Below the pieces are notes generated by a model, which had not been told where the DNA came from, searched no databases, and was given only the letters and a program-made list of their open reading frames with translations. A DNA stretch of 64,000 nt from Raillietiella orientalis (Eukaryota), in NCBI GenBank assembly GCA_036172245.1, contig JAYWIR010000007.1, positions 3,348,001-3,412,000 on the forward strand, written 5' to 3'. Positions 28,101-57,082 of this stretch are shown in pieces (position 1 is the first letter of the stretch; every line of letters starts with the position of its first letter). The position numbers were made by a program, and so were the translations under genes.

Positions 28101-31100
28101 AAATAAATATATGACATGCTTATTATATATTTTAATACCTATATCTGTATACGGATCAGTTTACAAATTTGTTTTAACATGCATATTTATTAATATCTAT
28201 TAGCATACATATTATGAATATATAAATATTAAATATCATAAAAATAAATGTGTATGTTGATTATATATAAAAATAATAAATGTGATAAATATATATATTA
28301 AATGTACATCCGAGCGTCCAATTATAAAAAATAAAAAATAATGACAGCGCTCGAAAATGGGGTCAGGAGAAATACAAATTTAAAAAGCAAAAAATCAATG
28401 AAGAGAAAAGGAAAATTCGACACATGAAAAAGTGTTGGGCGTCACACCCGGGAGGTCCTCCAGAATAAGCGGGGACATGGACCATCGGAAGACGGACTTG
28501 GTTCAGATGAGGAGCGGCTTGGAAGTTTCGAGGAGAGGAGCCGACAGAGGAAACGGGCGAGATGACTCTTGATGTCAGCAAGAGGAGAAAAGCTTCCTCC
28601 TTTGCGAGAAAGCGCGGCAGTTCCCGGTGAAGAAGCGTCTGGAGCGAGGGGAAGGCCATGCTCCGCATCGGACCGCGCAGCTCTTCGAGATGGTTTCTTA
28701 CAAACGCGGACCACCTGGGATTTGCGGGTTCACCCACGCGGCAAGGTCGAATCTGCTGCTGCCCACAAGAGGAGCTGCCAGAAGGAGGGAATATCAGATG
28801 GCTCGTCGTGTCGTCGCTGTGGCCTGCGGGACGAGACGCCTCTTCACGTGACAGATGGCTGCATGGGTCAGCGTCGTCTGCACACGGCCCGGCCACGACG
28901 CCACCTCGGACGAGATCAAAACAGCAGCCGTTGAAACAGCGAGATGGAAACTGCCGCCCGCGACTCAACTCTTCGTCCGTGATCACCGAGGGTCAACAGG
29001 ATGGAGGCGCTGGACGTAGCTTTCCCCCTTGAGGATGGTGAAGAAGCCTCCAGCATCTCCAGGAGCGAGAAAGTATCCGAATACCAAGATGTTGCCAGCC
29101 AGCAGTCCAAGAAAGGAGTCGCTGCGAAGGTGCAGGTCACCATCATTGGGCCTTTGGGAGCATGGGACTCAGCGGTGAATCAGTCCTCCGTGAACTGGGT
29201 GTCCCGCGGAGGTAGGAGGATGAAGCGAGGTTGCTCATGCATTCCCTACACTCGCGGCATCTCTCGGATGGTCACATCGGCTTGGATGATGACCGGGTGA
29301 TAGCTCGATAAAGTGCGAATACTAGCTGTTGCGGCATCCGGGAGTTTTTTGTCTTCCCAGGTTTTTCCGCTGTGGAGCAGAACACGTCCCACCTTGCCGC
29401 TTGGCCTCTGTCGTAACGCGTACGCTGGAGCAGAGCTTCGCCGTTGGCTCGCGAAAGGCAGGTCTGCCATGGGCGTTTAAGAGTGGTGCTTCATAGAGAG
29501 GTGAGCACTTTGCCGGAAGTGTTCACTGCCGGGATTCTAATTTGCACAGTGCTTCATCCACGCTGCCTCTGCGACGTCATGGGAAGAGGCGCAAGATCGA
29601 ATGCAAGCAGCAGTCCCTCCTTTTCTCCTCCGTCGTTTGCTCATTGAAGTGCGTTGCTTCTCCCCCAGAGAAGGGCAAATCTTTTCTGGAGAAGAAGCAC
29701 CGGACTCCAATGAACGCACTAATGGCGGGGTTCCTAGGAACTTTGAACGATGGCGTGCTCCAAGAATTCGGAACGTCCATCGCTCAGACAGAAAACATGA
29801 AAAGGAGGATGATAGTGTGCACATATTCGGGTGCATGTGCTGGGGTCGCGTTCTGGGTCACCTCCCAGGATGATCCACTATCAGGAAACTCCTGATCAGA
29901 TGACCAAAGGGAAGGAACCGTTGAGAATTCCCTGTGCTAAACACCCGTTTCATGTTTACTAAATATGAATGAAATCTCCACGATAGAGTGTTGCAGCAAG
30001 AATTGAAACGACTTTCAGATGACGCCTGGTGGTGAAACTCTCACGACTGGGTGACCACGGTGACCTACCTCACTTTGGCAGCACCCATCGAACTGTCTGC
30101 TTCCCCTTGTTCGACGCCCTGTCAATAGAATGGTGGACGCAGGAAAGATCGAAGTGGAAGGAAGTTTCGAAGAGTAGGAAGACGCAAGGAGGAAACTTCT
30201 ACTCGTGCGCTGCTACGCGTAGGAGAGGCAAGGACAAAATCAGTGGAACGGGATGCACTAGGAGCAGTAGAGGAAAACCGATGCTTGGAAGCCGCGTAAT
30301 ATAGAACTACAAACCGAGCTTGAAAACTGCGGTTCGTCCAGGAGAGACAGCAAGAGACTCTGCCTGAGCAGAATACAAAAAGACGAGACCCGTGGCAGTT
30401 CCATTGAAGACAAGAGATTGGAAGTAGGAAAAAAATGAAAATATAGTAGATTCCATCAACAGAGAGAACTAAAGATCTTGAGAAACACTGGGAAGACTCT
30501 GCAAATTCTGATAATCATCCCAATTTCGGTCGGAAATCTTTGGGTCCTTGCCAATCCTCGAAGAAGGTTGATACCGTACCAATGATGTCTCCAGAAAGAG
30601 GAATGGCTAGGTTTAGGAAACCTGGAGACATTGGATGGTCTTAATACAGAAGTAAAAATTGCAGTCTAGCTCCTCCGTTAATCTGCAACTGTTGAAGTGG
30701 ATGGAGTAGTCCAACTAAGAGTCAGGGAAGAGAGTGCTAAAAAAGCGAGATCTTGGAACCAACAGTCTTCTTAGGACGAGATGCAGACGAAGACAAAAAC
30801 CAGGTCTTTCTAGAGTTCCAAAGGCAGCTCAGAAGTGCAGGTCAGAGGTCGTCTCAAAGGAGCTGATGTGTGTGGCACGCGGGTCAGTTCCTTTGACCTC
30901 AGGTTCTTAGCAGCCGCCTGAGCCTCCCAGGGTCTCCGTGTTGCTCCTGCGAAAGTTCCAAGAGCGATTTCCGATGAGTCAATTTTTTTGTTCCGTATCT
31001 TCGGTCTTTGTTTTCTCATTCAGAGGGGAATCCGGAACGGAGAACTGGAGGATTTCTGCATTCTGGGTCAGGAAGTTAATGGAAACGCAAACCTTGGCGG

Positions 31101-32337
31101 AGGAACTTGGGAAATGGGCACAACTCTTGCTGCGCGCAAGACGAATGTGAGCACGGGAGGAAAGCGTTCTGCAATGAAGCGTTCTGCAATGAAGCTGATG
31201 ACCATCAAGCCTCAGGGACCCGAAATTTCTCTTCTGGGCCGGTATCTGCTGTTTCCCTGCTCTCATTGCCTCCAGAGTTTGAAGGCAGATTTACCTTGCT
31301 CGTTCCCTGAAAGTCAAAGTTTTACGCAGACCCCGAAGGTTCAGCGACAAGAAGAATCAGTCCCATCGTCTCGCGTCACCGGCTTGTGAATTTGCCAGTT
31401 GCGACCTTCGGTCTCAGTTTCCTCTCAAGCAGCCGCACCTTTTCTCTCTCACCTCCCGCCTCGAGCCCGAGATCTTTGGCTCAGCAGCACCGCTCGAAAC
31501 CCGCTTGCTCTATCTTTCGCGCGGATGCTCGTCATCCTCGACGGCTCAATTTTCCCGCCCTCTGCAGGAACTCCGAGTCCTGAGGCTTCTGGAATTTTTC
31601 TTTGTTTGTTTTCCTTTCCCGCAAGGGAACTCGCTTCGACCGGAGTTTCTTTCTAGACCCGGAAGGAGTTCCTGTGCATGCGTCAGGCCATCCGGAAATG
31701 TCCCTGAAATTGGCACGCAAGGCTCCATCTCTCCCTCTCTCCCTCCGTTCACCTTCGAAGGTCGCTCGTTGCTTCCGGCACCCGAGCACAATCCTCACCT
31801 GAAAGCTCGCCCAGACTTCCCGTCGCGAAAACCTATGCTGGGAACTCACTGGCTCCCTGCCTGGAGGAGGAAACGCACTGCGCGCGCCATGCGCTCCGAT
31901 CCACCGTGGCAGGTCCCCATGGCTTTTGCCGCTTCAGGAAACTTCGGGTCCTACGCTTGGAAGGCAACCGGCTGACCTCTCTTCCGGCCGAGATCCTGAA
32001 GTTGCGAGAGCTGAAGGTGCTGCAAGCGCAAGACAACTACTTTGAGAGCCACCTGAGGACGCACGCGGATGACAACCCCTGGCCACTGGTCGACAGCTGC
32101 CTGAAGTTGCTGAGGGAGCATCTTCCCGAGGTGTACCGCGATCTTCCGGACGCGGTGCTGTGCAGGATGCAGAAATGCCTGAGCTGTGACCAAGCTCGGT
32201 ACGGGGAAGGCGTCCCGGTCACCAGAATCGTGCAAGGCGTCCTGGGGCAGCGCAAGCTCCCGCTGAGGTTCGGCACCTGCTCCAGGGAGTGCGCCTTGGA
32301 GTTGGCGGCAAGGTCGCAGTTGAAGCTGTTGGTGTGA
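19179..32337 (+). CDS. LRRC63: Leucine-rich repeat protein, LRRC63-like (5 coding exons, ~443 aa; 5' end uncertain)
   Basis: Exons 19179-19564, 19621-19846, 26763-26846, 26893-27128 and 31938-32337 have GT-AG boundaries and consistent phases (2,0,0,2). The spliced protein has YLSLWAKFVNRLLDLTPIQGTLVSLNLTFNNF, several LxxLxLxxN repeats and a C-terminal C.SC...RYGEG...LPLRFGTCSREC module, which from memory matches LRRC63 architecture. Third codon positions are GC-rich. A possible acceptor at 19160 suggests further upstream exons. Confidence 0.75.
23000..24010 (+). mobile_element. Possible decayed pogo/Tigger-like DDE transposase
   Basis: KDGRHQD, NGIQL and LRLD occur in the order of LDGH.SH, NGI.L and LQPLD, followed by a Cys-rich CEICG...EWTC...C tail. 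Very degenerate. Confidence 0.2.
28550..29300 (+). mobile_element. Decayed RLE-type non-LTR retrotransposon 3' part (NeSL/Utopia-like) inside an LRRC63 intron
   Basis: FTHAARSNLLLP, CRRCGLRDETPLHVTDGC (CCHC knuckle), ALDVAFPLEDG and IIGPLGAWD. Homologous to the fragment at 56300-57090. Confidence 0.75.
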
Positions 32338-33249
32338 AGGAGGCTTCGACAGCTCCAAACTCTCAAGGCACGGTCGCAGAGCAGGCGGGAAACGGGCTAT
32401 GAGTGAAGGCCCTACGGCATTCGTCGAATTCCGAGAAACACTTCGCGTGCAGCAGCCAAGAAATCCACCGTCTGAAAAGTACTCCGAGATGGCTGTGGGT
32501 TTGAGTGTGCCCACGATGAGAAAGGGGGGGAGGTAAGGTCAGTGCAAAGAGGCCCCTACGCTGCTCCGGAAACGACTCGCGGGAAGTCACTTGCGCGGGC
32601 TCATCGTTCTGCTCGCACTCTGGGCTCCGTCTTCGTGCCTTGCCTTGGAAGGGATATCTCGGTGTTCCCAGACAAAGACGCAGGTTTTCCGCAGGCTCCA
32701 GGGTGCGGCAATTCTGTATCTTCCTTCCCGGTGTTCTAGGCGCACAGATGGGGGAAGATTTGAAGAAGATACGAGCTCAGTGATGCCAAACTCCACCCCT
32801 TTTTACTTTTATCCATTCGTCTCATGACACGGATCCGTTGCCACTTCGCAAGTGAACGTGCGCAGCACTCCATCCCAACACGCACGCCTCGCACGTGTCA
32901 GTTTGGAGGTGGTCCACGCAAGGAGCCGAGTTCTTCCGCTGCACCTTGGGTATCAGTGGTTTGGAGGACGTCGCGCCGCGCAGCTTTCCCCAGCGCGTCC
33001 CTCCTCTCCCGAGCGAAAGGCTACCCCGTTCCTCTTTTGACCTGGTCAAGAAGGAGCGTATGGTCCGTCGGCTTGGAGGAGGAGCAACGTGACCTGACTC
33101 CCTTTCATGACAGCGAACTGTTGTTTTCAGAGAAGACTGTGGCGTGGAACATCTTTGCCGCTTCCCTTTTCCTTCCCTTTTTTTGTGTGTGTACATCCTG
33201 GAGACCGTTGGGTGTGCCGTCAGGTCCTCCAACCTGATGCGGCAAGCTC

Positions 33250-38005: not shown

Positions 38006-39103
38006 TTATAGCTCCGGTTTGGTCACTGGTGAATGCTCCGCCATGTTGCTGCTGCTGGTGTTGCTGCTGGTGTTGCTGCTGGTGTTTAGCATCTTGTGAA
38101 GCGCGTCGAGGCACGGGTGGAGCTTGCTCCTTTAAAAGATTTCTCCGGAACATCTTTTCCAGTTCCTTCCAGTCAACTCACAGGCAGTAATGGAAGTCAG
38201 CATTCTCGTCCACGGGTTTGGAGTGGAAGCACCTCGAAGAGTCGTAAAGAATGAAGTAAGAGCATTCCACAGGGTCTGAAAAACCAAAGCGGAAGGGGGA
38301 GGGGGAAGAAGGTGGGACCCTACACGTGGAGGGCGTTCCTACTTGGCAGCGTCTTCAGCTCAGAGCGAGATGCCAGAGCTTGCAAACTCTCCAGAGCGGT
38401 CTGTAAAGGAATGATGTTCTCGCTACCGTTGTCGTTGAGGCATTCCGCATGACGGCTGCTGCATACTAAAGTCCGGAGCAAGTATCTTCGGAAAGGCATC
38501 CCTGGAATTAGGTCAGCCGCCTCTGGAAACATCTGCACTTACATGATCATTGGCTGCAAGCCGTTGGACAGGGTCACCAGCTTTCCCATCCGAAATCTGC
38601 AGAGCAAAACCTGTCTATCACATTCCCTTGGTATCTTGTCGTTCGCTGAAACTTTCAAGGAGAGGCTTCCGGAGAGGGGATCTAAAAACCAAAACCAAGG
38701 AAAGAAAGAAAAAGCAGCTTCGTGGGGTTCTCAGACCGCTGCTCTGCGCTCGGCCAAGATTCCCACGACTGTCTTCAGCAGGGAGGGTTATCCTTCGCCA
38801 GCCACCCGAGTCACATCCTCAAAAAGGATCGTTCGTCGCACTCCCTTCGTCCCATAATAACAATCACGCATCTGCCGGTAGGGAGCCTACCCATTCCAGA
38901 CTCACGGATCCTCGAGAACGACCTCTCATCACCCACAAGGTAAGGCATCGTTATCATCGTAGGGAGGAACGCGAAAGGCACGACAAGGCAAGACGAAACA
39001 CAAAAAGACAGCGTGGAACCGAAAGTATGGATGGGAAACTCTCTTTCCAGTACGTACCATTGACAGCGCAAGCAAGAAACAGAGACAGAAGCACCCAGTT
39101 CAT
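38006..39103 (-). CDS. Secreted 8-cysteine protein, paralogue A (181 aa, 5 exons; family not recognised)
   Basis: Exons 39103-39058, 38681-38543, 38485-38343, 38275-38182 and 38129-38006, all GT-AG, phases 1,2,1,2. Protein: MNWVLLSLFLACAVNDPLSGSLSLKVSANDKIPRECDRQVLLCRFRMGKLVTLSNGLQPMIIYLLRTLVCSSRHAECLNDNGSENIIPLQTALESLQALASRSELKTLPNPVECSYFILYDSSRCFHSKPVDENADFHYCLSKLHPCLDALHKMLNTSSNTSSNTSSSNMAEHSPVTKPEL. Collinear homology with paralogues B and C. Confidence 0.9.
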
Positions 39104-39179
39104 GATCCTGCCTGCAATCGGCTCACTACGATTTCGGTTCACAAGATGGCGCTCTACTTGGTTCGGTCAATTTAAGAAA

Positions 39180-39185
39180 TTTATA
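39180..39185 (-). promoter_or_regulatory. TATA box of paralogue A
   Basis: TATAAA about 77 nt upstream of the ATG at 39103. Confidence 0.5.
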
Positions 39186-40500
39186 TCGACCGCAGTTCCG
39201 CCCCGGGCGCAAAAAATTTCAGGGGGAGCATGCACGCCTCGAAACTGCACTTTTTCAAGGGGAGGGGGGGGGGGCAGTGCTGCCTTGCGGAAAGTGAAGG
39301 GGGAAACCAGGGAGGGGGTGCTTTTCTCAGTGAATTTTGAATCAGAGTCCCTCCATGGAGACACTGGAGATGTGCAAAGCAGCTCAGCAGGAATTGGAAG
39401 GGGTTTCTGAACCGAAGTGATAGAGAGTCATCGAGAAAACTGGGTAATTGGAGGTCATGTGACGCGCTGCAGAACGAGTTACCAAGTGAAACCAAGAAGC
39501 TTTAAATCCTTCCTCATTCCACGTCCCCTCTCCTACTTTCCAGCTCGACAACATCCATTTTGTTCTCGAAACCTATGGAATTCTTTTCCAAGGATCCTGG
39601 TGTGAGTGCTTCCTGAACTCCAAGACCGGAGAGGCGAGTAAACAAGCCAAAGAAGAAGCGTTTTATCTTTCCTTTCCTGGAGGCTTCTTGAATTCTGTGA
39701 TGCCCATGGCCTGCTGCTGAAGTTGAAAGCAAGCTCCAGCCTCTTTGAGGAATCACGAAACTCGGATCTTGAGAGGTTCTCTAGATCCGAGGTGGAAGTC
39801 TGTCCACGTCTATCAGCTTGGAGAAACCACTGACCTTCAAGGCAGCAGCATCCCTAGGGGAAGGGGGGGGGAACCTGTATCATTCCGAAAATCCCTCATG
39901 ATCGCAAAATCGTCCGGAAAGTTCAGAGGCTCTTCTTGGTGTTGGAACAAAAAGAAGTCTTAGAAGGGACCACGGTAAGCTAAGTTTCTGAGGTTGATTG
40001 TGGCAAAGGCCGCTCCCTTACGGTGCTGTCCGAAGACGGAGAAAGAGCAGGTCGTGGACATGTGGAACGTTCTGGAACAAGCGTAGCGTCGGGCAAGTTG
40101 GCAGAGGAACGCAAGTGCAGCCTCTTAAAAAACGGCCTAAGAACAGCTGGCTGCAGAAGTTCTCAGGAAGCTGAGAGAAAGAAAGACGCCTCACAGGTAT
40201 CCAAAATTTCCAAATCGATGGATTCCTTGGGGGTGACCAGGCACGGATTGCAATCGTCAGTGCCTCATCGTGACCACTCTTGGTCCTCAACGCTTCAACA
40301 GCGATGGCAATCAGTTCCCCTCACCCCTTTCCAGCTCGACGTTCTGCTCGGTGGAAAGGGAGATCGTCAGGGCCGGGGCAATTGGGGGAACAGCTGGGGC
40401 TTCTTCGTGCGCGCTCTGCGGCACGAGCGTGCGGCTCCGACGAAAAAAAAAGAGGCTGCGCGAAAAAAAAAAGTCCTCAGCCTGTTCCCCTCGATCCTTC

Positions 40501-40592
40501 CATGCGTACCCTGAGGACTTACTTCGAACAACGCAGCAAACCGGGTCATGCGTACCCTGAGGACTTACTTCGAACAACGCAGCAAACCGGGT
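40501..40592. repeat. Perfect 46-bp tandem duplication
   Basis: CATGCGTACCCTGAGGACTTACTTCGAACAACGCAGCAAACCGGGT occurs twice. Confidence 0.97.
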
Positions 40593-40797
40593 CACTTCTT
40601 GCGTCCCCAAGCGTCCGCCAAGAAGCCAAGTTACCCCCCTCTCCGTGACCGTTCTCAGGCCAGGTGTGTCCAGAGTGGAACCACTAATAAAAGAGTTTTT
40701 TGAGTGTGTTTTGTGTGTTTGGTTTATTTTCCCTCATTTTCAAATGAAAAAAAGAACAAAAAGCCAGAGTGAGCCTCGATGGCAGGAAGCGCGTTGG

Positions 40798-41681
40798 TCA
40801 GTCCGTCTTTGTAGTGCTCAAGTCTCCTTTCTTCATATCATCCAAGAGCTCTTTCACACATTTGTTGAGCTTCCTCCTGCAAAGGAACGCAAGAATCAGT
40901 GCCTCCATCCTCGTGCCGTCCGAACATACAGGCAGTAGCTGAAGTCGGGATTTTCAAGGGAAGGCCTGGAGTCGAAGCATCTTGGGGAGTCGAAGGTCAC
41001 AAAGTATGTGCACGTGGAAGCACCTGGAGACGGGAACCTTTTCATGTTTCGCGTAGACAAGAGCAGAAAGATTTTCGTACTTGAAATCTGCACGCGCGTG
41101 TGGGTCAGCAGCTCCCGCAGATTCTCTATGGTGCTGTCCAAAGGGACCACGTCTTGCTTGCCGTTGAACTCCAAGCACTCCCCGTAACGCTTGCTGCACA
41201 CAAGAGTTTTTGCGATGTATCTTCGGAGAACAAAATTCAAAAGACTGCACTCGGTTCTTCGTTACTCACGTGAGCAGTCGGTGCAGTCCATCCTCCAGGG
41301 TCATCATCCTGCCCACCCGATACTTGCAGAGCCCATACTGTTCCTCGCAGTCACGCAGTACGAGCTGCTCCTCAGCATCAGCAGCAGCAGCAGCAGCTTG
41401 CAGCTTGCTTTCGCAAGGAGCTGAAAGCAAAAGACCCGAGGTCAAGCAAATGGAATTCACTGCATGTCGAAAACAGAAAGGTAACTCCCGAGATGCATCC
41501 GAGGAATGCCGGTTTGGAATTGGAACTGGAGACGGAGAAGTGCAAAGGGGAGACTGGGATGAAGTACGGTAACCTTCAAGCATTGCAGGTGCCGAAAATG
41601 CAAAAGGAAAAACAAGCGAATGGTAAACATGCCGTTTAGTACAGAGAAGATGAGCAGTAACGCCAGAGACCGACTGAGCAT
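40798..41681 (-). CDS. Secreted 8-cysteine protein, paralogue B (170 aa, 5 exons; first intron GC-AG)
   Basis: Exons 41681-41633, 41420-41270, 41220-41081, 41023-40930 and 40876-40798, phases 1,2,1,2. Protein: MLSRSLALLLIFSVLNAPCESKLQAAAAAADAEEQLVLRDCEEQYGLCKYRVGRMMTLEDGLHRLLTYIAKTLVCSKRYGECLEFNGKQDVVPLDSTIENLRELLTHTRVQISSASTCTYFVTFDSPRCFDSRPSLENPDFSYCLRKLNKCVKELLDDMKKGDLSTTKTD. AATAAA at 40728-40723. The exon 1-2 junction is the least certain part. Confidence 0.85.
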
Positions 41682-43808
41682 TGCTGGCAGTCAGTACAGA
41701 CTATGGTGTCAAGCAGTTCAGAATGATTTTAAGCACCGCGGTGTCATAACACCGAAGACGCACTTTAGCTGTGGGCGTGCCGCTAGTTTGCAGGAAAGAA
41801 AAGTATGGAAGTGCACGAAGTTTCGCCAGAAGGCCCTCAGGGAAGTTTTTTCCGTGTCTCAGAGGGGAAGGGACAAGCACTTTACCTGGGACTTTTTTTT
41901 TGCGAATTCGGCTGAGAATAAAGGAGAGATTTGCGACACCCAAGAACGGATCAGCGACCCATGCATCTCTGGCATTCGCTCTAGTTTTCCATTGTCCGAT
42001 CCACGATTTCGCCCCGTGGCCGAAAATTTCGCGGTGCCGGTGACCTTGGAGAAGCCTTCGTGCTGGAGAGGTGATGCATCAATTCGTTGGCACCACGAGG
42101 AAGCGGCTGAACAGCAAAAACCTCGTCCTCTGCGGAGAGAACACGCCGTGGCTTTACATCCTGGAGATCATGTGGGATATCAGCATCTGGGCGGCAGCAT
42201 GTGCGGTTGTAATTTTAATTGTGTAGAATTGCATCACTCATTACATCACATCATGGTTTCGAAAAATCAGATCAAGTGCATAGGGCCGAAAGGGTGGAAT
42301 GTATTGCATAACACACACAGGATTGAGAGGACAGGCTCAAGCCTAACCTCTATGGAACCGACAGGATCCACCACGTAGGAATAATACATGTATGAGAGTC
42401 ACACACGAAAGATAAAGTATTTAAGATTAAGCAGATAAGATTACACATGTAGAACTGTGAATGTAGGGCTGAGTACACGGGTCAAACACATAGAACTGAA
42501 AAGGTGGCGTCACTTACGAGGGTATAAGGGGTCGGATAACCAGCAGTGAGAGCGGAATCCGCGCCAGCGCGGTTGTCTATCGTAGAGGTTTGCATATCCA
42601 CGACGGGAAGCGGGTGGCTGGCAATTGAGTGAAATTTCACGTTGATAGGGAACGCGACGGGAAGAAGTTTTCCTTCGGCAGGGACCGCGAGATCTGGCAG
42701 TGGCGAAGCTGCGTGATCGAAAGACGTCGTTCGTAGCCCCTCCAGTCCTACCAAGCGGACTGACGGGTCCTCGTGATGGTTAAGCGTCTCTTTCAACCGA
42801 ACCAAGGCAAGGCAGGCAATCTTCCCACTGGGACCGCCCCGCCGGCAAGAAAGGAGTGCAGTGGCCGTCTTCCTCCGGTGCTAAAAGACGTCCGCGGAAG
42901 CCAATGCAAGCTCGTGGGGCCGCCTCTGGGGAGACGGACGGCACGAGGAGGAACCTCCCGGTAGTAGTGGCGGAGTCCTCGGGAGCAGGAAGAGCGCTCT
43001 TGCATCGACCCAGCAAAAGGTTCGCCGGAGACCTCACTGGATCGCAGACGAAAGGACGTGTTCTGGAAGGAACGAGGGTTCAAAAGCGATTCCAAGTGCT
43101 TGCTGGCCGCCTTCACTGGGTGCATGATGGGGCTCCCGAAACTCTCGGGGATTTGGCCTCCGAAGGCGGGAAAATGGGGTGCGTCTCCTGGGGGTAGTGA
43201 AGGGGGTAAGGCAGGAGGAGATGGAGAGAGACAGGGGAGAGGAATAAGGAAAGTTGGTATGGGAGCGCCCGCGCTCGTGTGCAGGAAGGCCACCAGCTTG
43301 GACCTCCCGAGTCCTGCAAGAAGCGCTTAGAGAAAAAGTTCATCTTCGTGAGGAGCAGCAGCCCTGCATGAAGACGTCCTCATCCCTTCCGTGTCCTTTC
43401 TCGAACCGTTAAAAGCGAATATTCTTTTCTTACAGTATCCCAATTTTCGAGCAAGAAGGCTCCCTCGTTAATCTCTCTTCCTACCATAGTAGGTGGTCCT
43501 CGTCTTAGCTTCGAAACCCTTCCTCATCCGCACCCCCTTCAACGACACGCGGGAATCCTTTGCGACCGGAGGCCTCAGATCATTTGCCCTTTACCTCCCC
43601 TCCATCACCCGTCTTAAGTTTCCTCCCTCCATTCCCATGACAACTTCCTTCCCCCATGGGGAGTCTGGCTGCAAGGAGCCGCCGGCAGCCGAATGTTTTG
43701 CTTCGTTTTTGTCCTTTTGGTTCTGGCCGCTCCCTTCTGGACTCCGTCAACAGAAGACCTGTAGGGGAAGAGGAAGTTCATGAGAACACGGGGATGAGGG
43801 AGGAAATG

Positions 43809-43849
43809 CAATCTCCAGAGTGTGCACGGCGTGCACACTCTGGAGATTG
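43809..43849. repeat. Perfect palindrome, 20-bp arms with 1-nt centre
   Basis: CAATCTCCAGAGTGTGCACG-G-CGTGCACACTCTGGAGATTG. Confidence 0.97.
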
Positions 43850-45343
43850 ACATCGTGCATGGCATCCTGAAGCCCTTCCCTCGGGTCATTTGGGTTGTCT
43901 CTAGGACGGCAACCTGCAGAAGTTCCCGGCCGCTATCCCGACCTCCGTTCCCTCCTCAGAATCTGCGGCAAGGAATTATGCGGAACTTCCTCTGGATGGA
44001 AAGGACTACTTCGTTACGATCCAGCAGGAGGAGGTCGCATGAGTGTAAACTGTCCTTAGGCTAAGGAGGGAAATGGGATAGGATAAAGGACGGATGAAGG
44101 AGTCCCCAGGATATGAGACTCAGCTCTTGGAAAGCGAGCTTCTCCAAGCTTTGCCAAGATGGAGAGCAACCTCCGATGGATCCTTCCTTCTCAGAAACTG
44201 CTTGGGAAGCTCACGCTGGTGGCTGCTTTGGTATCGAGACGCATCCTTCTTCCTGGAAGTCGGTGAGCCCAGTGGACAGCTCGGACGTCCGCCGCATCCG
44301 ACCTGGAAGAGACAGCCCCCATTCCACTGCCAATTCCCTGCCCTTCGCCTTCACAAGCAGCCCTCGTCGCTGTCAGCTATGGAGGAAAGGATGGACCATT
44401 ACGTCACCCTCATCGAAAGGTCCTTCTCCTCTTTCCAGCTCCTCCTCCCGCACCTATCTCCAGTGGGGAGGCAATCTTCTCACTGGACCCTAGCGCTTCT
44501 CAGTTGCTTGGGGAATCCGATCTTCATGCCACCCTTTCCCCTTCCTGCCCCACGAATACCCCTACTCCGCATACATGAGTGCGACTGTGCTTTTCAAGGA
44601 AGCGAGGGATTGCGGAGACGGAACGGGACAGGTGGATGAACGGGAAGAGATGCTAGCGCGCTCAAACCGTCCCGGTCACCCTGACGACGAAAGGCAAGAC
44701 GTCCTCGAAGCGGGAGACGAGACTGTCTGGAAATTTCCATCCTCGTCCGCGGTGGTACCATCTCCTGGAAACAAGGAAGAGGAAAAATCTGCGCCAGTAT
44801 CTGCAAAGGCATAGAGCGCGATGGGAGGAGCAACCACGTCTCTATAGGAGACCGAGTGAATCCGGACTGGAGGAGTGACCTCTGCCATTGAAAGCTACCC
44901 TTGGCCCTGCGCTTCCCTCCGCTACAACCTCGTCCTTGGCTGGGAAATCTAGATGGGTCAGTTTTCCTTACCCCGACCTTGTTCTCGTAGGGACAGCCGC
45001 ATCACGGCCCAAGGCGACTGGTCCCTGTCCCGCTGGGCCGTCCCTCCTTTCTCTCCCGCCAGAAAGAATGTCGGGGAAGGCGAAAGGGTAAGCGTGACGT
45101 CATACCTCCCGTCGCTCAGAAAACGTAGCGGCGATAACCCCATTTCCTTCCTGCTCCATGAGGAGGAGTCCCGGAGAAGAACCATCAGCTGCCTCGAGGG
45201 GGCAAAGCATCCACATATCTCCTCCAGGCACAGAGAGGGGAGTAGTTCTTTATCTTTCCCTCTCATCCCCCTTGAGAACTTCCTTCCCCTCCCACTTCGC
45301 CCTTTTTTCCTTTCTCTTTCTTTTTTCTCTTGTTTTATTGAGC

Positions 45344-46192
45344 TCAGAAGAAGAAGTCCCTGATGAGCTTCATGTTGTCCGGACAGTCGTGTGACGGTGG
45401 CCAGACGGTGGTCCCGCCCTGGACGACCTTGAGCTCCCGGAAGACCTCTTGAACGCAGAAAGTCAGCTTGCTCATACAGTAGCGGAACTCTGGACTCGTG
45501 ACCACGGGCGGAGCGTCGAAGCAGCTGGTGGAGTCCTGGATGACGAAGTGGTCGCACGCGGACGGGCCTGCTTCGCGGGATGAGAGGATGGACGAGAAGG
45601 CAGATGGAGCGAGGAAGAGAAAGAGAACCGGCTATGTGAATCCCGTGTGACCTCCCTCCTTTCCGAAGGAGAGAAAGGGGCCCCGTCCTACCGCGGATGG
45701 TCTTCAGTTGAGGGTACGACAGCGCCAGCTCCAGGTTCACCAGCATCCCCTCCAGTAGGATGACGTCTGGGTAGTTTCTCTCCTCCAGGCACATGGCGTA
45801 GCGCTCACTGCACACCAGGCTCTTGAAGAGGTACCTGGGGGGCAGGAAAAGGTGGTCGCCCTCCCCTTCTCTCCTCTTTCTCAAGGAGCGCTGCGCACGC
45901 CATCTCACAGCAGCAGCGGATGCAGCCCATCCGCCAGGGTCACCGTCCCTCCCACGTGGTGCTTGCATATTCCGAACTGGCCCCGGCAGTCCCGGGGTAC
46001 GGGCTGATCCCCTTGGCTGGGGGAGGCCCTCACGTCCCTCTCGGCGGTCGATGCTCCTGGAAAGCGAAGAAGGTGACGGTCGGTCGACCGCAGCCCGTTG
46101 CCAGGGGAGGGGAGGGGAAGGGACCGGATCGCCTTACCGATCGGCGCCAACAGTCTCTCAAGCACCAGCAGCAGCAATATTAGCTCGCCCAT
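45344..46192 (-). CDS. Secreted 8(+1)-cysteine protein, paralogue C (189 aa, 4 exons)
   Basis: Exons 46192-46138, 46056-45909, 45834-45692 and 45567-45344, GT-AG, phases 1,2,1. Protein: MGELILLLLVLERLLAPIGASTAERDVRASPSQGDQPVPRDCRGQFGICKHHVGGTVTLADGLHPLLLYLFKSLVCSERYAMCLEERNYPDVILLEGMLVNLELALSYPQLKTIRGPSACDHFVIQDSTSCFDAPPVVTSPEFRYCMSKLTFCVQEVFRELKVVQGGTTVWPPSHDCPDNMKLIRDFFF. AATAAA at 45339-45334. Confidence 0.9.
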
Positions 46193-46293: not shown

Positions 46294-46300
46294 TTAAATA
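46294..46300 (-). promoter_or_regulatory. TATA-like element of paralogue C
   Basis: TATTTAA in otherwise GC-rich sequence, about 100 nt upstream of the ATG at 46192. Confidence 0.4.
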
Positions 46301-47979: not shown

Positions 47980-48031
47980 GAAACCTTTTGAGACCTAGTG
48001 GAGACTTCTCCACTAGGTCTCAAAAGGTTTC
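47980..48031. repeat. Perfect inverted repeat, 25-bp arms with 2-nt loop
   Basis: GAAACCTTTTGAGACCTAGTGGAGA-CT-TCTCCACTAGGTCTCAAAAGGTTTC. Confidence 0.97.
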
Positions 48032-49636
48032 TCTTGATTCGCTGTCGTGATGTAACGGGTTCAAAACAAAGTAGAAGGGAAAAAAAGCCGAATCAAGGAG
48101 GAAGTAAAAATCTGCCTCTTTCCAAAAGTACAACGTATTTCGAATCACATATTTTGATTAATTGCTTGTATGACAATGTGACAACGAGACGGTGAATCTA
48201 AACAACGGAATCCACGACCGAGTGAAATCAGAGCAGCGATCAGCGACGTTGTGCACACAGTAAAGTCACTGAATCGGGAGCAAAAACCAAAAAGTAGTTT
48301 TCTGCTAAGATGACGCAGTGATCATTATTTCTTCTTACGAATAAGGGACAAACTTGCTAAACAATAAGAACTCATTGAATATACTCCGAAAAATTACTTC
48401 AAAAAGATTGGGGTATTGAGGTTTATAGCAGAGATCGGAAACTGTCGGAATGAATGGAATAGAAATTAGCCATTCTGATAGCTAGACACAGTTCCTTATT
48501 GACGATAAGATTTTACAAAAAAACAGAACGCTGATTTCAAGTTCACTCTACTCCAAACAGCATTCATATAACTTTTATGCACCTAGGAATGTGGTCTTAT
48601 TTTTCTCCACTTATATTGTAGAAAACGAACGAAAGCAATCTTCCTCAGAAAAAATTACAATAACACTTTCAGTAAGGCTTCTTGAACTCGAATAAAAATG
48701 ATCAGTCTCCTGAACTAGACAGCTACATTTATCTAAGCACATAATAACATCGAGATGAGATAGGATAGATAAAAAAAGAAAAAAAACAGTGAGTCTTATG
48801 CTTTTACCGAGCACTCTTTTTTTTTTTTATAATCTATCCTAAGACTCTCCTTTAGATCCATGTTATAAATGAATTAAGATCTTCAGAAATAGCTTTGGGA
48901 ACTTGAAACTAAACTAAAAAGTCGTCATTAATACAGACTGACTAAATCAACAGGTACGGATGTAGAAATTGAATTCTTCTGAAAACATAAGCTAAGTACA
49001 TAAAATCTAGCAAGGAAAATCCATGAGTCAAAGAGTAATATTCAATCCATGAGTTAAAGTTTTCGATATTCAAACTTTTGCAATATTCATAGCAAAATTT
49101 CTTTTCATATCTTCACAGTCTTTTCCCAATACTGGAAAACTGCATGACTATAATTTCAATCACTGTTCTGGAACGGTAACGTGTCTGTAAAAAATATTTT
49201 CCTTGTAAATAACAGAAAACACGCCTGATAATTTCTCACATTTTCTTTTGTTTTGTTTTTTAATCAATTTTAGTGAAATGCTCCACGCTATTCTGCTGAA
49301 ATTTAGAACTGTATTTACGTGCTCAATTTGGATCTCCATATAAAATTTGCACTGATCGTTACTAAAAAAAAAAGCAAGATTTTGAACTCATTTATTTATT
49401 TATAATTTATGTATCATATTCATAATTGAACTGACATCGAAGTACATTATTTACTTCATAAACTCTCATACAATCCTATGGTGACGTGAAAATGCACAGA
49501 TCTACTGAGGCAAGCTAGCAACCCTTGCTAGCCGATAGTGTCGCTGTGTTACATCGAAATTGCTCGAGTGAATAAATTTGTGGCTGTATTTGGCAATCGA
49601 TCGTATTGTGATTCCGGAAAATTGTGATCGATTCGT

Positions 49637-50822
49637 ATGTCAATTCAGAATTTGAATACGTTTGGTAAGTGTTTTGATCGAATTATTTTTTGTGTTTGAA
49701 AAGGCGAATGCATCAGTTGGTGATCTCTATTTTAACCCGTTTATTTCGGTAGCTTGTCTTTTACGCAGTTTCGGGGGAAAATCTGCGAAACTTTTACAGA
49801 GATGCAAAATTCCAACTGGTAACTAGACGCACTTCCCTTTACTTTGTAGTCTTCCTCAAATGAAGAGTATTTAGTATTTGAAAAAACGATGAACCTTTTA
49901 GAAATAGAGTGTAATGCATGCTGTAAACCATGCATCGAAAATAAGTTTCTATTTTATGTGATTTTAACTTGAAATGTAAGCTTTAACATACTGTTTCCAG
50001 CGCCATCTTCACATTGGGCTATATGGTAGCATGAATACATAGGTGCTCCGTACCCATTGCAAATGACACTTATTTTTATCATTTAGCACACAATAGTAGT
50101 GAAGTGCATACTTCAGTTTGAATGTGCCACTATCTGTTCGAATTTACTACATAATTAGCATGCTTAAGAAACAAAACTAATGTTCTGTTGAATTTTTCCT
50201 GCCTTTACTAAACGTATGCACAGAGTTTGTGTTGGTAGTTCACTGACAAACATGGAAAGTCTCACCTTTTTAGTTCCAAGTGTTATGCTACGTAGATGCT
50301 TAAGCAATTTGCTATATTGCATGATAAGAGAGACTTTGCTTTATTGACTTAAATCTTATTGCATAATCAATAAAGGAAGTGAGACAAAAGCTTCAATTCT
50401 TTGAGCTGGGTTCATGTAAACTTCAAACAAGTTTAACAAGACTTATGTTACTGCACAAAATAACCACTTGTTTTGCAGATCCCTTTGCTGATGGGACAGA
50501 AGAAGGTGTCCAAGATGGATTGGTTCACATCAGGATTCAGCAGCGCAATGGTAGAAAAACTCTAACCACTGTGCAAGGTTTATCAGTAGATTATGATTTA
50601 AAGAAAATTGTACGAGCTTGCAAAAAGGTAATTCGTACAAACTTAAGTATGCATTCTAAACCTCGAATTACACAGGAATTTGCATGCAATGGTACAGTAG
50701 TGGAGCATCCAGAGTATGGTGAAGTACTGCAGATGCAGGGGGATCAGCGAGAGAACATCTGCCAATTTTTGACTAAAGTTGGGCTGGTTAAGGCATCTCA
50801 GATCAAGGTGCATGGATTTTAG
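49637..50822 (+). CDS. eIF1: Eukaryotic translation initiation factor 1 (SUI1), 107 aa, 3 exons
   Basis: Exons 49637-49664, 50479-50627 and 50676-50822, GT-AG. Protein: MSIQNLNTFDPFADGTEEGVQDGLVHIRIQQRNGRKTLTTVQGLSVDYDLKKIVRACKKEFACNGTVVEHPEYGEVLQMQGDQRENICQFLTKVGLVKASQIKVHGF. Confidence 0.97.
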
Positions 50823-50965
50823 AGCAAAATGAATTATTTATTGGCACTATTAATATCATCACATGTTTATGCCATCTAAAATGTAAAGTGGGAGTGGGAA
50901 GGAGCATTTTTGTATGGAATATCAATAGCAAAATCTCCAGCAACTGGCTTCTGTAAAGGTGCTAG

Positions 50966-52403
50966 TTAACGACTCAAGTGTGACTCCTTGCAAACAGCAT
51001 GAACCAGTTCGTGGTTTATTAAGAAAAGAAAACTTATTCCTGCCACCTGAAAAGAAGGATGCATTCTTTGCTCATATTTTTGCATGCCACCTCCTTACTT
51101 CTAGCAAGGAGCCTGAACTTAACAAATATTCTTCATTGAAAAGTAAGGGTCGACCATCAACAAAAATAGGATGTTGGCCCAGATTGGTGATGTGGAACAT
51201 TCCCTGGGAAATAAGATATATGCGTCCCTGCAGACGACTAATCTTTGAGGAGGATTTCTCCAGTGACAGATCAATGTCTATTTTCTGATCTTTTGCTAAT
51301 CTCCCGAAAGTTACCTGGTTTTTTCCTTTCTTTCAGAAAACTTTCAAGTTTCTACTAACCTCTTTAGAACGCATCAAGTATCTTACTTGCTGACCTCGAA
51401 GAATGGCCAAAGTCTGACTATCCAGTTCAGCTTGTACAATATTTGTGCAAGTTGCTAAATGTTGCCACCGAACTAACTGCTTTTCTAAAAACCATATCGC
51501 TTGTTTATTATTATATCCTGATTGTTGCAGATCTTCTTGGAGTACATCATCTTCTGATCCTATATCACTAAGTTCTTCCTCCATTTCAGAAAAGGTGGCC
51601 AAATCAGAATGTGTTTCCAGCAACTGTTGACTTTGCATACTTCGTTTCAGTCCTCTGTCTGTGCGTCCTGCCAAAAACACATCAGGATATTTCCAGAGAA
51701 GCTGGGAAAAGAATTCCAAAGAAAAACTGCTTCCATGAAACTCTTTGGCTAATAGTTGCTCCTCAGCAACACTGAAGGGAACTCGGTTATATACAGCCAT
51801 AACAGCTGTCTTTGGTAAAGAATAAATTGCATGACGAGTAGTCTCCACAGCAGACTGATTGTATAATAGAGTACGCCAACGCTGTTCTAGCTCAGTCAGT
51901 GTAACTTCACAAGAAAAGCATACTCTCTGGTGCACTTTTTCCAATGTACCCAACTAGAAACTACTGTGTTATGATAAAGATATAAAACATTAATACTTGC
52001 AAAACTGCTAAAGCAAGCATCAAGTCATCTGTGGGTTGCCACTTTGATACATCATCGTGCAGCAGGCTTTTGCTTGGAAATCTGGTTTTTCTGTTTACTA
52101 CAATAGATCGCAAATTACTGATATTTTAAACAAGAAACAGTACTGCAAGTATATGCCTACCACGTTCACTACTTGAAGTACTCCTACGTTGCACTTTGGG
52201 ACTCGGTTGAGAATCTATAACTTCGTCTGCAAATTTTTTTCTTTTAATGCAGCGTGTACTGTAACATAGTCTTTTACAAACTCATTCAAACGGCAGTACA
52301 TTTAAGGAATTAATTTTGAGAAGGAATTACAAGATTTGAAAAATTTGTGAAACATTAGACCAATGTAAGCATGAAGCAGATATAAATACCTTCTTCTTTC
52401 CAT
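50966..52403 (-). CDS. MCRS1: Microspherule protein 1 (MCRS1/Rcd5-like; MCRS_N plus FHA domain), 367 aa, 6 exons
   Basis: Exons 52403-52390, 52258-52161, 52097-51997, 51953-51360, 51314-51099 and 51046-50966, GT-AG and in phase. Motifs RCIKRKKFADE, KWQPTDDLML, TLAILRGQQVRYLMRSKEVTFGR, IDIDLSLE and KISRLQG match MCRS1. Confidence 0.92.
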
Positions 52404-54129
52404 TACGTTATTTAGCTTATGTTATCCATGCAGAATTACTTTTAACTAAGCAGAGCATTCTAATATTGCTTGCTTTGTAAGAACTAGTAGGAAAACCGGG
52501 CCATGTACATACTAACGATACAGATCTGAAGGGCGTACACGTACTGCTACGTTTCCATTGCATTGTAGCTCCCATGCGACATGGCCAACTTAACGATTAC
52601 GGTACTGATGCGTCAGCGAAAAGAACTGTTACTTTCGTACGCCCTTCCGAAATGGTTGCAATGAAGTGGCATTCATAGTCCTTCTGAATTCAAAGACTTT
52701 CTCGCCTTATGGATTTTTTTTTTTTTTTTACAAACTATTCATGTGATAATGCATGCTGAAGAAAATTCTTCGATTGGTAACAGAGTTTAAAAACCTGAAA
52801 AATACACCTGCGAATTATCCGAGCTCACTTTCCGTATGTCGTGAACTCCCACGTTTCGGACGTGAGGTAGGTGCCGTTTCAAAGAACTGAGATCAAAACC
52901 CAACGACTTTGCTCCAGTTTACCATTACTGCTTAAAGAACGGCAAGTGAATACAAGCTGAACATTACACACTTGAATATTCTGAAGATTGTTTTTCAAAA
53001 ACGAAGCATTCTCAGTTGACCTACACTTGAATAACCTCAAAACGCATTCTGAACTTCGTTGAAACCCCATATACTTCCAAGCGCGCACAAATGAAGCCTT
53101 CGTTAAATGGTTGCAGTTTTTTTTTTCTATAATAATCACATATGCTTCATGAATATATTAGTTTGTTAGTTTACAAAGGAAATGAAAGAAAACATATGTA
53201 CTCAATCGCGCTTTTACCCAGGAATATTCTCATTTCTTGAAGCAAAAGCGCCTCTTGCGTTCCTTTTTGTCTCATAAGTTTTTTCAATTCAAACAAAACT
53301 TCAAACTCCTGTTCTTTGTCAACTAAATTGATGTAGCCAACGCGTTGCTTGCTTCTCCGAAAAGACGCTTACAACTGCCTATGATTTCGGCACCTACGAT
53401 TTGCTTCAGAAGGCGGTTTCATATTCGATAACTAAATCTTCCTGAAGAATAAAAAGTAGCTGCATTTTATCCTTGCTGTTGCAACCTACGTCTACACTCG
53501 ACATTTCCTTTAAGGGCAAAATCTGTTCGCAAATCAGAAGCTCTCCGAATCTGTGATATCGTCAACGATTTTTCTAATGAGTAAATCAAAACACTGGTTA
53601 TTCGAGCACCTCTGGAGAGAAAGGAATCTAAATTAACACTTGGCCACCCGGAATAGACTTATACAGCAAGGTAATCCTGAGTACGCTTTCTCAAATTCTT
53701 CTAACCAATTATTACTATACCCCCCCAACGTTAATTCCTATTCTGGGAGCGTCGCATGTACTTCATTTTATGCCATAGGTTGAATTTCAGTTACAGAAAG
53801 GTTAATACTAACGTAATATCCATACTTCCTTAACTCAAATTCTAACATACAGGCTAGCACTAGTTTAGGCACTTATGACATTTACAGTACCTATGAATAG
53901 CACTCATTGCGATTATTAAATGTAGTATATAAGGCTATCACGTAAGATTGAATACGGCAAAATCCAGTAACTCTGCTTTTCATTAACCAGGTTCATTGAA
54001 GTTAATGCCATGTCGGAAAAATTCTTTTTTCCATATTTCTGTGTGAATGCCCTCTCTCTATATACATACATATATATGCACATATATATAGAGAGAGAGA
54101 ATGGAATTCTATATTGTTATTGTATTGTT

Positions 54130-54300
54130 GTTATCTCTGACTATATCATTGTATGTGTATCATTATCTCCATGGAGAATACCATGTATACACACAAAGAG
54201 AGAATAGAATTTTATACCTATATCTGCATATACATCTATACATATATGGTATTCTCCCTGGAGATAATGATATACATAGAATGATAAAGCCAGGGATAAC
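54130..54300. repeat. Imperfect inverted repeat (59-bp arms, 53-nt spacer) in an AT-rich, MITE-like segment
   Basis: 54130-54188 (GTTATCTCTGACTATATCATTGTATGTGTATCATTATCTCCATGGAGAATACCATGTAT) matches the reverse complement of 54242-54300 with 7 mismatches. Confidence 0.9.
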
Positions 54301-54399
54301 ATTAGCTATAATCACCAGCATAATTGCAGCAATGATACAAACAATACAGTGAATGAATGTACATGTAAATTAACCTCATAATACAAAAATTTAAACACA

Positions 54400-55908
54400 T
54401 CATTTAGTGATGTCAAGGTAGTTCTGAATCACAGACTGAACAATCTTCAATGGAATATCTACTGTCTGGTCATCACAAAGCACGACATCATAAAGGCTGG
54501 AAAATATATCTAGTCTCTCTTCCACCTGGCAAGAAACATTCCACAGATTATCAAACTCTATACAAATGGTAAGTTTGCCTTATAATTCAGGAAACCAATC
54601 TTTAGTAGATTCTGAATGTCTGGAATATCTTGAGACATCTGCACATCACCCTCACAATCTCCTAGAAGAAGAACATTGTGACGCTTCTCCAACTGATTGA
54701 AGTACCACTGTGTGCTATCAGAGCTTGACTTCTTATTGAACATATGAATGATCGTATCCTGAAAACCTGATAAATAACCCTGGAAAACAAAACTCTGAAC
54801 CAAGAAAAATGAAAATCCCACTTCTTTGTTAAAACGCATGAAATTGGAAACAATATGGACGTTAGGATGCAATATTTTATTCTGAATAAGCACTTCTTTA
54901 ATGATGTCTCCAATACCAGCTGAAAAGACAAGGATAGGTACTTGCTCCTGATATAGCAGATTAAACAATTCATGAGTTCCATCCCTAATGATTACATGTA
55001 GTTAATTGGCAAGTAATCAGTTTACCTCATACCTTAGTTGGATAGAAGATTCGGAAACAAGAGTTGCAATTTGCTCTTGTCTCAAGACGCTTTTAACCAG
55101 ATTATCATGTGCCTTGGTATACCATTCCAGCATGAAAGGGATTTTGTCACTTTCTTCCATGTGTGGATCCACTTCAATTGCATGATATTTTTCATACATA
55201 ACCGCAGCCTCTTTCCTGTATGCAGCAAGCAGAGTATGATGCTCCAAGGCACCTATGGGTAAAAATAACAAATAAAAAGATGAAAACGAAAATTCCGAAT
55301 ATAAATTGCCTCCTATTTAATATTTCTGCTTCGTTTGCTGCCTCAACAGAAGTGAAGTTAAGCACTGATACTTTCTTGTTAATCTCCGGTTTAATACTTT
55401 GAGCAAATACACCAAGTACAAAGCGATATAAATCTGTATTCCACATGGCAACTGCTACTTTATACGCAAAGCTGCACCTTTGCTTTGCGTTCAAAACATG
55501 ATTTAGTTATACTTCGGGGCTGGATGCCTTATCAGTTTCAAACTGACAGTAATCTTAATTTCAAACTTTGTATGCACAAACTAGTTTCAGATACACCAAA
55601 AATGATATAAATCGTGTAAATGTGCACTATTAATGATGAAAGGATCAATTGCAACGTTTGAGACATATCTGCGAACGACTCATACACTACTCATAAAATA
55701 AAAAAATGACAATTATAAGCAATTTTTCCTTACCCCAGCTACTAGTCAACGGTACCCCGTTCGCATGGGTTTTCGTTAACGTCCGGTCAAAATCGGTAAC
55801 CACTTGCAATTTTAGGGGTCCTTGACCTAGAATGTTTCCCAAAATTTCGCCTACTTTCTTCTCATCTTTAATGAACACCTTGGAGGAATGAGATTTTAAT
55901 GACAGCAT
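54400..55908 (-). CDS. NT5C3: Cytosolic 5'-nucleotidase III family (NT5C3/cN-IIIB-like HAD hydrolase), ~294 aa, 5 exons
   Basis: Exons 55908-55734, 55252-55033, 54984-54822, 54779-54579 and 54525-54400. Motifs LQVVTDFDRTLT, KIPFMLEWY, VPILVFSAGIGD, IVSNFMRF, NVLLLGD, LKIGFLN and YDVVLCDD. The start codon and last donor (GC) are inferred. Confidence 0.92.
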
Positions 55909-56239
55909 TATTGTTCTTCGAGCATGTGGCACTACACTTCATCAGAGAAACGCTACACCTCTTGCGGCGGGGACGTCCTCATCCCGTTTCAGACGCCAGT
56001 CATCAAGCCAAGACTTTTCAGGTCATCCAGGAACACAAACGCAGCAGTCCAAATTTAGCATCCGAGGTTCACTCAAAAATGATTTTACATCATTCATAAG
56101 CAGCCAGGCAAATAATAAATTGTTGCATTTTGTAAATAAGAGTACTATGGATAGAGCATCAAATTGCATGGAAATGCATTGGATACAAAATACAAATTTA
56201 TTTAGCATTTGTGGATTAATACAAAAACTGTTGCTGGAA

Positions 56240-57082
56240 TGACTGTGAAGAATCTTTAGCGAATGATGTTTCCACCGGTTTTCTTCACGGTTCCTCGGTG
56301 CTCTCTTCCTGGGTGAGAGCATGGTCCAGATCATTTGGTTGGGCTGCATTTTTTTCTTTCTTACATGTGTTGCATAGATGCTACTTGAGAAGAGGATGCA
56401 GGTGGCTACCATCCTCTGCCGTAGCCTTATCAGCTTCTTCTTCCGAATTCCTAGGTATTGCAGAACGTTGTCGTTTTCAGGATCCCATGCTCCAAGTGGG
56501 CCGATCAGGATCGCCTGCACTTTGGTTATTTGAGTTGCATGGCGGCATCATGGAATCTGGCCTCCTTTATTTTCCTAGATGTGGTGAACGCCTCCTTTCC
56601 GTTTTCAAATGGGCAGGAGATGTTCAGCACACGTATTCGATCGCTTTTCTCTAAAACCAGGTCTGGTTTTAGGGTGGAGGTGGGTTCCTGGCACTCTGCG
56701 ATCGCTTGATACCAGAGTCCACTTGGCTTCCTCCGTTGCGGCCTTCTTGATGATTTCCAGGAGAGCATCATGGCGCTGCATGGATCGTCAGAGGCGCGTG
56801 CTTTTTACATCTGTTGAGCACGTGTGATAAAGTCTCGTGCTCTGTTCCGCAACGCCGACATGTCCTTTCATGGACCTTCTTCGTTGGTCCAGCGTTTAGT
56901 GGCAGAAGGTTCAGTCTTGCCGCATGGATGAACCTGTGGTCTTGGTATCTTAGGTGGATTCCGTTTGTATGGAAGAAGCTTGAAGACTGATGCATGTTTA
57001 CACACTGCATGGCCTTTCCTTGACTAACGTGGTTTTCAATGAGGGATTGCCATGAGTGTTCTCGCTGCAATGCTCGATGCTC
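56240..57082 (-). mobile_element. 5'-truncated RLE-type non-LTR retrotransposon (NeSL/Utopia-like), frameshifted
   Basis: SQGK, RFIHAARLNLLPLNA, CRRCGTEHETLSHVLNRC (CCHC), LKPDLVLEK...NISCPFENG (PD-(D/E)xK endonuclease) and LIGPLGAWDPEND, across three frames. Confidence 0.88.

Follow-up and report, generated by a model that had tools for sequence, protein, structure and literature searches.

Classic odorant-binding proteins (OBPs) have a six-cysteine pattern with a C-X3-C core and a six-helix fold around a hydrophobic pocket. Spider OBP-like and CCP proteins have reportedly been put forward as candidate carrier families, by Vizueta et al. in 2017. Chemosensory proteins (CSPs) carry a four-cysteine motif, CX6CX6-18CX2C, with CX6-7CX16-19CX3-4C in copepods (PMC5850775), and CHH/ITP neuropeptides follow CX15CX2CX12CX3CX8C (PMC5577568). 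The locus described here lies in a 64,000-nucleotide stretch of Raillietiella orientalis DNA, hereafter the window (positions 3348001–3412000 of contig JAYWIR010000007.1, within a 210-Mb, 491-contig assembly; feature coordinates count from the window start). It comprises three intact minus-strand paralogues, genes A, B and C, and all three predicted proteins carry the skeleton C-X6-C-X26-C-X6-C-X35/36-C-X10-C-X14-C-X6-C.

An earlier note on the window had described these genes as functional, conserved and old. This is borne out by purifying selection on gene A, by saturated synonymous divergence (dS) between the paralogues and by spliced mRNA of A and B, as shown by their retrocopies. Genes A–C form a real, functional and apparently undescribed family. 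Our preferred reading, to which we give a probability of roughly one half, is that the family is lineage-restricted, disulfide-stapled and secreted, and that its products would be abundant in germ cells or early embryos, as egg-coat, sperm or vesicle cargo.

Retrocopies of genes A and B

Exon-level genome searches found six intronless copies of gene A and one of gene B on six other contigs. A DNA search with the last exon of A returned seven matches, all of them accounted for by gene A and the same six copies. Counting ungapped columns, the retrocopies match the spliced mRNA at 81–88% identity, and parental introns are absent at 16 of 16 covered junctions (A intron 1, three; A intron 2, five; A intron 3, five; B introns 2–4, three). 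At the A intron 1 junction one of three copies is exact and two carry short deletions; the fragment L013 spans no junction, and B intron 1 lies outside the coverage of L002, the B copy. In lacking parental introns wherever a junction is covered, the seven outlying copies match processed pseudogenes. They confirm A introns 1–3 and B introns 2–4, and show that transcripts of the two genes were spliced and then copied back into inherited DNA on no fewer than seven occasions.

Every copy is inactivated, whether through frameshifts, through stops or because the start and cysteines have gone. None of the five long A copies is nearer to another copy than to A (identity 0.80–0.86 to A, compared with 0.76–0.80 between copies), and no flank is common to any of the five, so the insertions look independent. 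The alignment of L007, the longest retrocopy, begins 68 nt ahead of the ATG. A TATA-like element stands further up at −108, and the alignment is consistent with a transcription start just downstream of it. L007, L008 and L009 have an A-rich run at the 3′ end, after the poly(A) signal. Among the six copies examined, none has a convincing target-site duplication, with one possible 8-mer at L008.

One A copy, L006 (1498–2298, minus strand, on C25), keeps most of the mature region in one long open frame and shows no indel across 386 nt, despite having lost the start and several cysteines. Two weak single-exon matches, L021 (1435–1719, plus strand, on C27) and L027 (1468–1713, minus strand, on C43), were not counted as copies. 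Their local profile E values are 0.004 and 2.7, after selection from the genome, and they may be very old fragments or chance matches.

Gene models and the eight-cysteine scaffold

Splicing by coordinates gives open frames for gene A (189 aa, four exons), gene B (170 aa, five exons) and gene C (181 aa, five exons), with the cluster running from the ATG of A at 46192 to the stop of C at 38008–38006 and introns of 49–376 nt. The proteins share 38–45% core identity, and the pairwise BLASTP E values of 1e-33 to 1e-39, from a comparison of three sequences only, are far past chance. The earlier claim of clean splicing with matching intron phases holds in part: all three frames are open and introns 1–3 agree in phase (1,2,1), but A lacks the phase-2 fourth intron present in B and C, and B intron 1 as modelled has no GT donor. 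That intron is the sole exception to GT-AG ends, found in 10 of the 11 introns. It probably uses a GC donor that lines up with the GT donor of gene C; another donor/acceptor pair is possible, with 33 in-frame options listed. No fourth paralogue was found in the window, in the 10 kb before it or in the 20 kb after it. Two repeats were also seen in the cluster: 46 nt duplicated perfectly in tandem in the interval from gene B to gene C (40501–40594), and a 12-nt tandem repeat in the last exon of C (38050–38086, minus strand), which encodes three consecutive N-T-S glycosylation sequons.

Pattern matching recovered the eight-cysteine skeleton as it had been claimed in the earlier note, together with all four of the shared motifs listed there, in three of three proteins. 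Cysteine spacing is 6,26,6,36,10,14,6 in A and C and 6,26,6,35,10,14,6 in B. Outside the skeleton, B has Cys19 and A has a ninth cysteine, Cys177. The latter (codon 177, window 45381–45383, minus strand) is unpaired, lies in a C-terminal extension and is also present in copies L007 and L009; it could link a covalent dimer. The N-termini of A–C are hydrophobic (9-residue Kyte–Doolittle maxima 2.9–3.1), which agrees with the signal-peptide exon previously predicted for each gene, and a hydropathy and sequence scan found no later transmembrane-like or glycosylphosphatidylinositol-anchor-like stretch. The proteins are probably secreted. A hydrophobic-moment scan revealed helical periodicity near C3–C4 and past C7–C8, weakly suggesting helical proteins, and we infer that the eight cysteines would form four disulfides. 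No propeptide site common to all three proteins was found. An internal 34-residue repeat, suggested by MAFFT for exon 2 and exon 3, was rejected; with the cysteines fixed it was not significant and was reached by 54 of 500 shuffles.

Selection on gene A and conservation of the cluster

The polarised test of selection was run on the 161 codons for which three or more of the five long A copies have sequence. The gene A lineage has 9 synonymous and 4 nonsynonymous changes (omega about 0.14), compared with 47 synonymous and 120 nonsynonymous changes private to one retrocopy (omega about 0.80; Fisher p=0.004). Gene A is under purifying selection. The ratio of nonsynonymous divergence (dN) to dS, which the earlier note had expected near 1 for genes without function, is thus not near 1 for A, while B and C rest on conservation. 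Pairwise gene-to-copy dN/dS is 0.38–0.79 for A and 0.56 for B, and these values are those expected with one branch neutral.

It is very improbable that A–C are dead or dying relics that merely look intact. The non-canonical donor of B intron 1 would suit such relics, and gene C is known from genomic sequence alone. However, all eight skeleton cysteines and the four motifs are kept in three of three genes at a dN of 0.44–0.57 and a saturated dS of 1.1–2.8 between paralogues, whereas every retrocopy lost cysteines, frame or start within a dS of 0.2–0.5.

Searches for homologues

The queries were 20–146-residue exon pieces, a B two-exon frame with a 19-codon intron, or the L006 open frame, and never the spliced proteins; given these partial queries, remote relatives may have escaped. 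A word-index search of 5.8-billion clusters gave two candidates for B exons 3–4 with the intron, of which none scored, and 718 for alignment A3, of which none scored at E 1. The four phmmer matches among 1.84 billion representatives are long repeat proteins without the cysteine skeleton and were discarded as summed-repeat artefacts. Six exon-level queries matched no Pfam family at E up to 0.1, and 11 alignment members searched at E up to 10 gave two zinc-finger noise matches only. A PDB profile search returned only nucleoporin noise at E 0.75. In the ESM Atlas, RING-finger rows at 0.82–0.85 fell below the 0.9 lead level and came from a pseudogene frame with extra cysteines; a second query had no match, and the Atlas had no structure for the queries. 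A JGI metagenome scan yielded four loci with only the seed word in common, which were set aside. The earlier statement that this is not a recognised named family stands, in that these partial queries had no true match in either of two large protein collections, in Pfam, in PDB or in the ESM Atlas. A literature search found no description of this cysteine pattern, which is weak evidence of absence, as a motif-level full-text search was impossible.

A question apart from tissue is whether A–C are remote members of a known all-helical, cysteine-rich extracellular group beyond profile detection. DUF19/CPG4-type, DUF1397, neuritin and GFR-alpha are extracellular helical domains with several disulfides. 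Genes A–C may resemble them in putatively helical C-X6-C pairs and an aromatic-rich segment before C6, but differ in cysteine number and spacing, and the searches gave no sequence or profile support. The helical periodicity around C3–C4 and after C7–C8 also fits such a group. Neither the Pfam searches, made with exon pieces and a pseudogene frame, nor the PDB profiles returned any family of this kind, and we regard distant membership as possible but less likely than not.

Proposed germ-line expression of the family

From the genome alone, the retrocopies fix splice junctions, supply a neutral yardstick for selection and direct attention to the germ line. A retrocopy can become fixed only if it arose in the germ line, and its formation depends on mRNA stability and on the identity of the germ-line or pre-germ-line cells in which the enzymes are made (PMC5470649). 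Inherited retrocopies thus indicate that A and B mRNA was present in cells that passed DNA on. The controls eIF1, RPL21, RSPH4/6 and tektin have one locus each, with no retrocopy found for any, which makes the six copies of A unusual. The earlier note had offered chemosensory-carrier, pheromone, seminal, salivary and venom types as functional options. Among these the retrocopies would favour a germ-line or early-embryo product, and the chemosensory options lose ground, the CSP and OBP cysteine motifs being absent.

If A–C were purely somatic chemosensory, salivary or venom products, that alone would leave the inheritance of their retrocopies unexplained. A–C could nevertheless be somatic gland or sensory products (salivary/venom-type, pheromone, accessory-gland or odorant-carrier) if the retrocopies stem from leaky germ-line transcription and an mRNA end that suits long interspersed nuclear elements (LINEs). 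TATA-type promoters and a tissue-specific GC class speak for this, as do the small, cysteine-rich, tandemly duplicated proteins with a signal peptide and the very short A-rich 3′ end at which the A copies end. Gene B was retrocopied too, however, despite its different 3′ end, and none of the CSP, classic OBP, CHH/ITP, xibalbin-8 and CS-alpha-beta cysteine patterns occurs in the three proteins. Weaker is the absence of six of six exact short motifs from the accessible cell text (up to 400 characters) of three Argulus secretome supplements, and no protein listed in the text covered from supplement 2 (part 1 of 2) has the skeleton (PMC7029603). We consider a somatic origin a credible minority view.

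GC content at third codon positions (GC3) is 0.66–0.84 in A–C, compared with 0.30–0.32 in housekeeping genes (eIF1 and MCRS1; two genes only). This contrast, together with the lack of retrocopies of eIF1 and RPL21, speaks against a secreted protein of broad expression, such as a haemolymph carrier or an immune or signalling factor, made in germ cells among other places and with no special reproductive role. Purifying selection on A, solubility without an anchor and the fact that retrocopies require mere germ-line presence would all suit such a protein, which we judge improbable. The GC bimodality is sharp in its own right: eIF1 and MCRS1 at 0.30–0.32 contrast with A–C, a leucine-rich repeat (LRR) gene of the window, RSPH4/6 and cuticle genes at 0.66–0.92, and window positions 48000–58000 contrast with the rest (loci L028, L042–L066). 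The split looks like one between housekeeping and tissue-specific genes and perhaps arises from gene-body methylation.

Several observations weigh against a germ-line or early-embryo product. The housekeeping and sperm-tail controls are surely expressed in germ cells and left zero copies, so germ-line expression alone is insufficient, and very high abundance or a LINE-favoured mRNA end is needed. The retrocopy excess of A may reflect, rather than abundance, an mRNA end suiting the LINE enzyme, with the poly(A) signal 5 nt past the stop and an A/G-rich tract behind it. The control set is four genes only, and the genome search scores only the best candidates. The retrocopies are old (dS 0.18–0.46), so they show past, not present, expression, and no retrocopy of gene C was found in the genome searches. 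The GC-rich codon class was rejected as a sign of testis expression: the genome has 14 matches to RR-type cuticle proteins, which mark it as that of an arthropod and not of a nematode, and its cuticle genes are equally GC-rich (GC3 0.73–0.92 in the 10 matches read in the coding direction; the remaining four, read on the wrong strand, were left out), and tektin is intermediate (about 0.48). In the signal peptide of A the core is short, at 8 residues, and charged residues come directly after it. Gamete-recognition proteins are expected to be under positive selection, and selection on A is purifying.

If A–C are nonetheless germ-line or embryo products, they would be small (about 17–19 kDa) soluble secreted proteins of a family grown by old tandem duplication and made in large amounts by germ cells or early embryos, with expression of gene C there assumed from its siblings A and B. 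A signal peptide would direct them to the secretory pathway, where the eight invariant cysteines would form the four disulfides. Helices would be stapled into a compact bundle by the three C-X6-C pairs (i, i+7, on the same helix face), and this bundle could be stored in a germ-cell vesicle as egg cortical or envelope material, or as part of a sperm vesicle or coat. After release it might serve as a stable coat component or binding protein, and the divergent residues between the cysteines would give each paralogue its own partner. A further proposal, that A–C are an undescribed family with its own disulfide-stapled helical fold and a major gamete product (sperm vesicle/coat or egg envelope) of a little-studied crustacean lineage, appears rather unlikely.

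A germ-line role, if true, would make A–C candidate gamete or egg-coat proteins for a lineage whose reproductive proteomics is almost a blank, and their compact four-disulfide scaffold would be worth solving. If they also proved to have a fold of their own and to be a major gamete product, fertilisation or the assembly of egg coats could for the first time be approached at the molecular level in that group. Should A–C instead be somatic, or distant members of a known fold, only a new family record would remain.

Surroundings of the cluster

The window neighbours of the cluster are the LRR gene, eIF1, MCRS1 and a pyrimidine 5′-nucleotidase gene. A homologue search with the MCRS1 exon, aimed at placing the lineage, gave no match within the lengths it allows. 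The earlier note put the cluster among decayed transposable elements; none of 68 window open reading frames scanned matched a retroelement family in Pfam. The spliced LRR gene (26700–32340, plus strand) ends in a last exon with a cysteine-rich tail; the tail is reminiscent of LRRC63/LRRC58, and Pfam shows LRRs only. Frames 56026–56547 (minus strand) and 28983–29297 (plus strand) share a short motif with no Pfam match, which we take to recall an R2/NeSL-type C-terminal endonuclease. A 149-codon frame (19119–19565, plus strand) has a protein-like composition and no Pfam match. Elsewhere, the genome has RSPH4/6 and tektin genes.

Table 1. Coordinates of the gene cluster, its retrocopies and neighbouring genes, counted from the window start unless another contig is named.
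Feature	Position	Strand	Remarks
TATA-like element, gene A	46294..46300	−	108 nt before ATG
Gene A exon 1, signal peptide	46138..46192	−	phase-1 GT donor; junction exact in L009; intron sequence absent from L006 and L007
Gene A exon 2, C1-X6-C2	45909..46056	−	phase-2 donor; junction intronless in 5/5 covering retrocopies
Gene A exon 3, C3-X6-C4	45692..45834	−	phase-1 donor; junction intronless in 5/5 covering retrocopies
Gene A exon 4, C5–C8, ninth Cys, stop	45344..45567	−	uninterrupted where B and C carry intron 4
Gene A polyadenylation hexamer	45334..45339	−	5 nt past stop, then A/G-rich tract; L007, L008 and L009 end here in A-rich run
Gene B exon 1, signal peptide	41633..41681	−	probable GC donor, phase 1; boundary by homology to gene C, outside retrocopy coverage
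Gene B exon 2, C1-X6-C2	41270..41420	−	3′ junction confirmed by L002
Gene B exon 3, C3-X6-C4	41081..41220	−	both junctions confirmed by L002
Gene B exon 4, C5, C6, C7	40930..41023	−	both junctions confirmed by L002
Gene B exon 5, C8, stop	40798..40876	−	L002 matches junction and 3′ untranslated region
Gene B polyadenylation hexamer	40723..40728	−	from the sequence
TATA box, gene C	39180..39185	−	82 nt before ATG; consensus match only
Gene C exon 1, signal peptide	39058..39103	−	sequence only
Gene C exon 2, C1-X6-C2	38543..38681	−	sequence and homology only
Gene C exon 3, C3-X6-C4	38343..38485	−	one N-glycosylation sequon
Gene C exon 4, C5, C6, C7	38182..38275	−	splicing by coordinates
Gene C exon 5, C8, stop	38006..38129	−	12-nt repeat giving three N-T-S sequons
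A retrocopies	L006 on C25; L007 and L008 on C1; L009 on C26; L018 on C19; fragment L013 on C32		
B retrocopy	L002 on C35		
eIF1	50300–50822	+	compact, short introns
MCRS1 (MCRS_N and FHA)	51050–52130	−	compact, short introns; tail to tail with eIF1
Pyrimidine 5′-nucleotidase	54400–55940	−	compact, short introns

Comparison with known systems

Like CSP/OS-D proteins, A–C are small, probably secreted and possibly helical, with an opening C-X6-C pair and multigene clusters; unlike them, none of the three matches either CSP pattern, and Pfam gave no OS-D match to the partial queries. With insect OBPs, spider OBP-like proteins and CCP carriers, A–C share a signal peptide, a conserved cysteine pattern, a similar size and a possible helical character. 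They differ from classic OBPs in that CX3C occurs in none of the three proteins, the classic spacing does not fit and Pfam gave no match to the partial queries. A pattern test found no CC, CXC, CX2C or CX3C in any of A–C, which excludes inhibitor cystine knot-type folds. The CHH/ITP neuropeptide pattern occurs in none of the three. Remipede xibalbins (PMC5577568) resemble A–C in being crustacean, secreted and orphan, with fixed cysteines and variable loops, whereas the xibalbin 6 (ITP/CHH), xibalbin 8 and CS-alpha-beta patterns described there are all unlike those of A–C. By these patterns A–C do not belong to the CSP, classic OBP, CHH/ITP, xibalbin-8 or CS-alpha-beta families, though they may act in a carrier-like way. 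Orphan clusters of secreted cysteine-rich proteins are common, and as a lineage-specific cluster of this kind A–C belong to a well-known type of gene; their scaffold, which matched nothing searched, is apparently undescribed.

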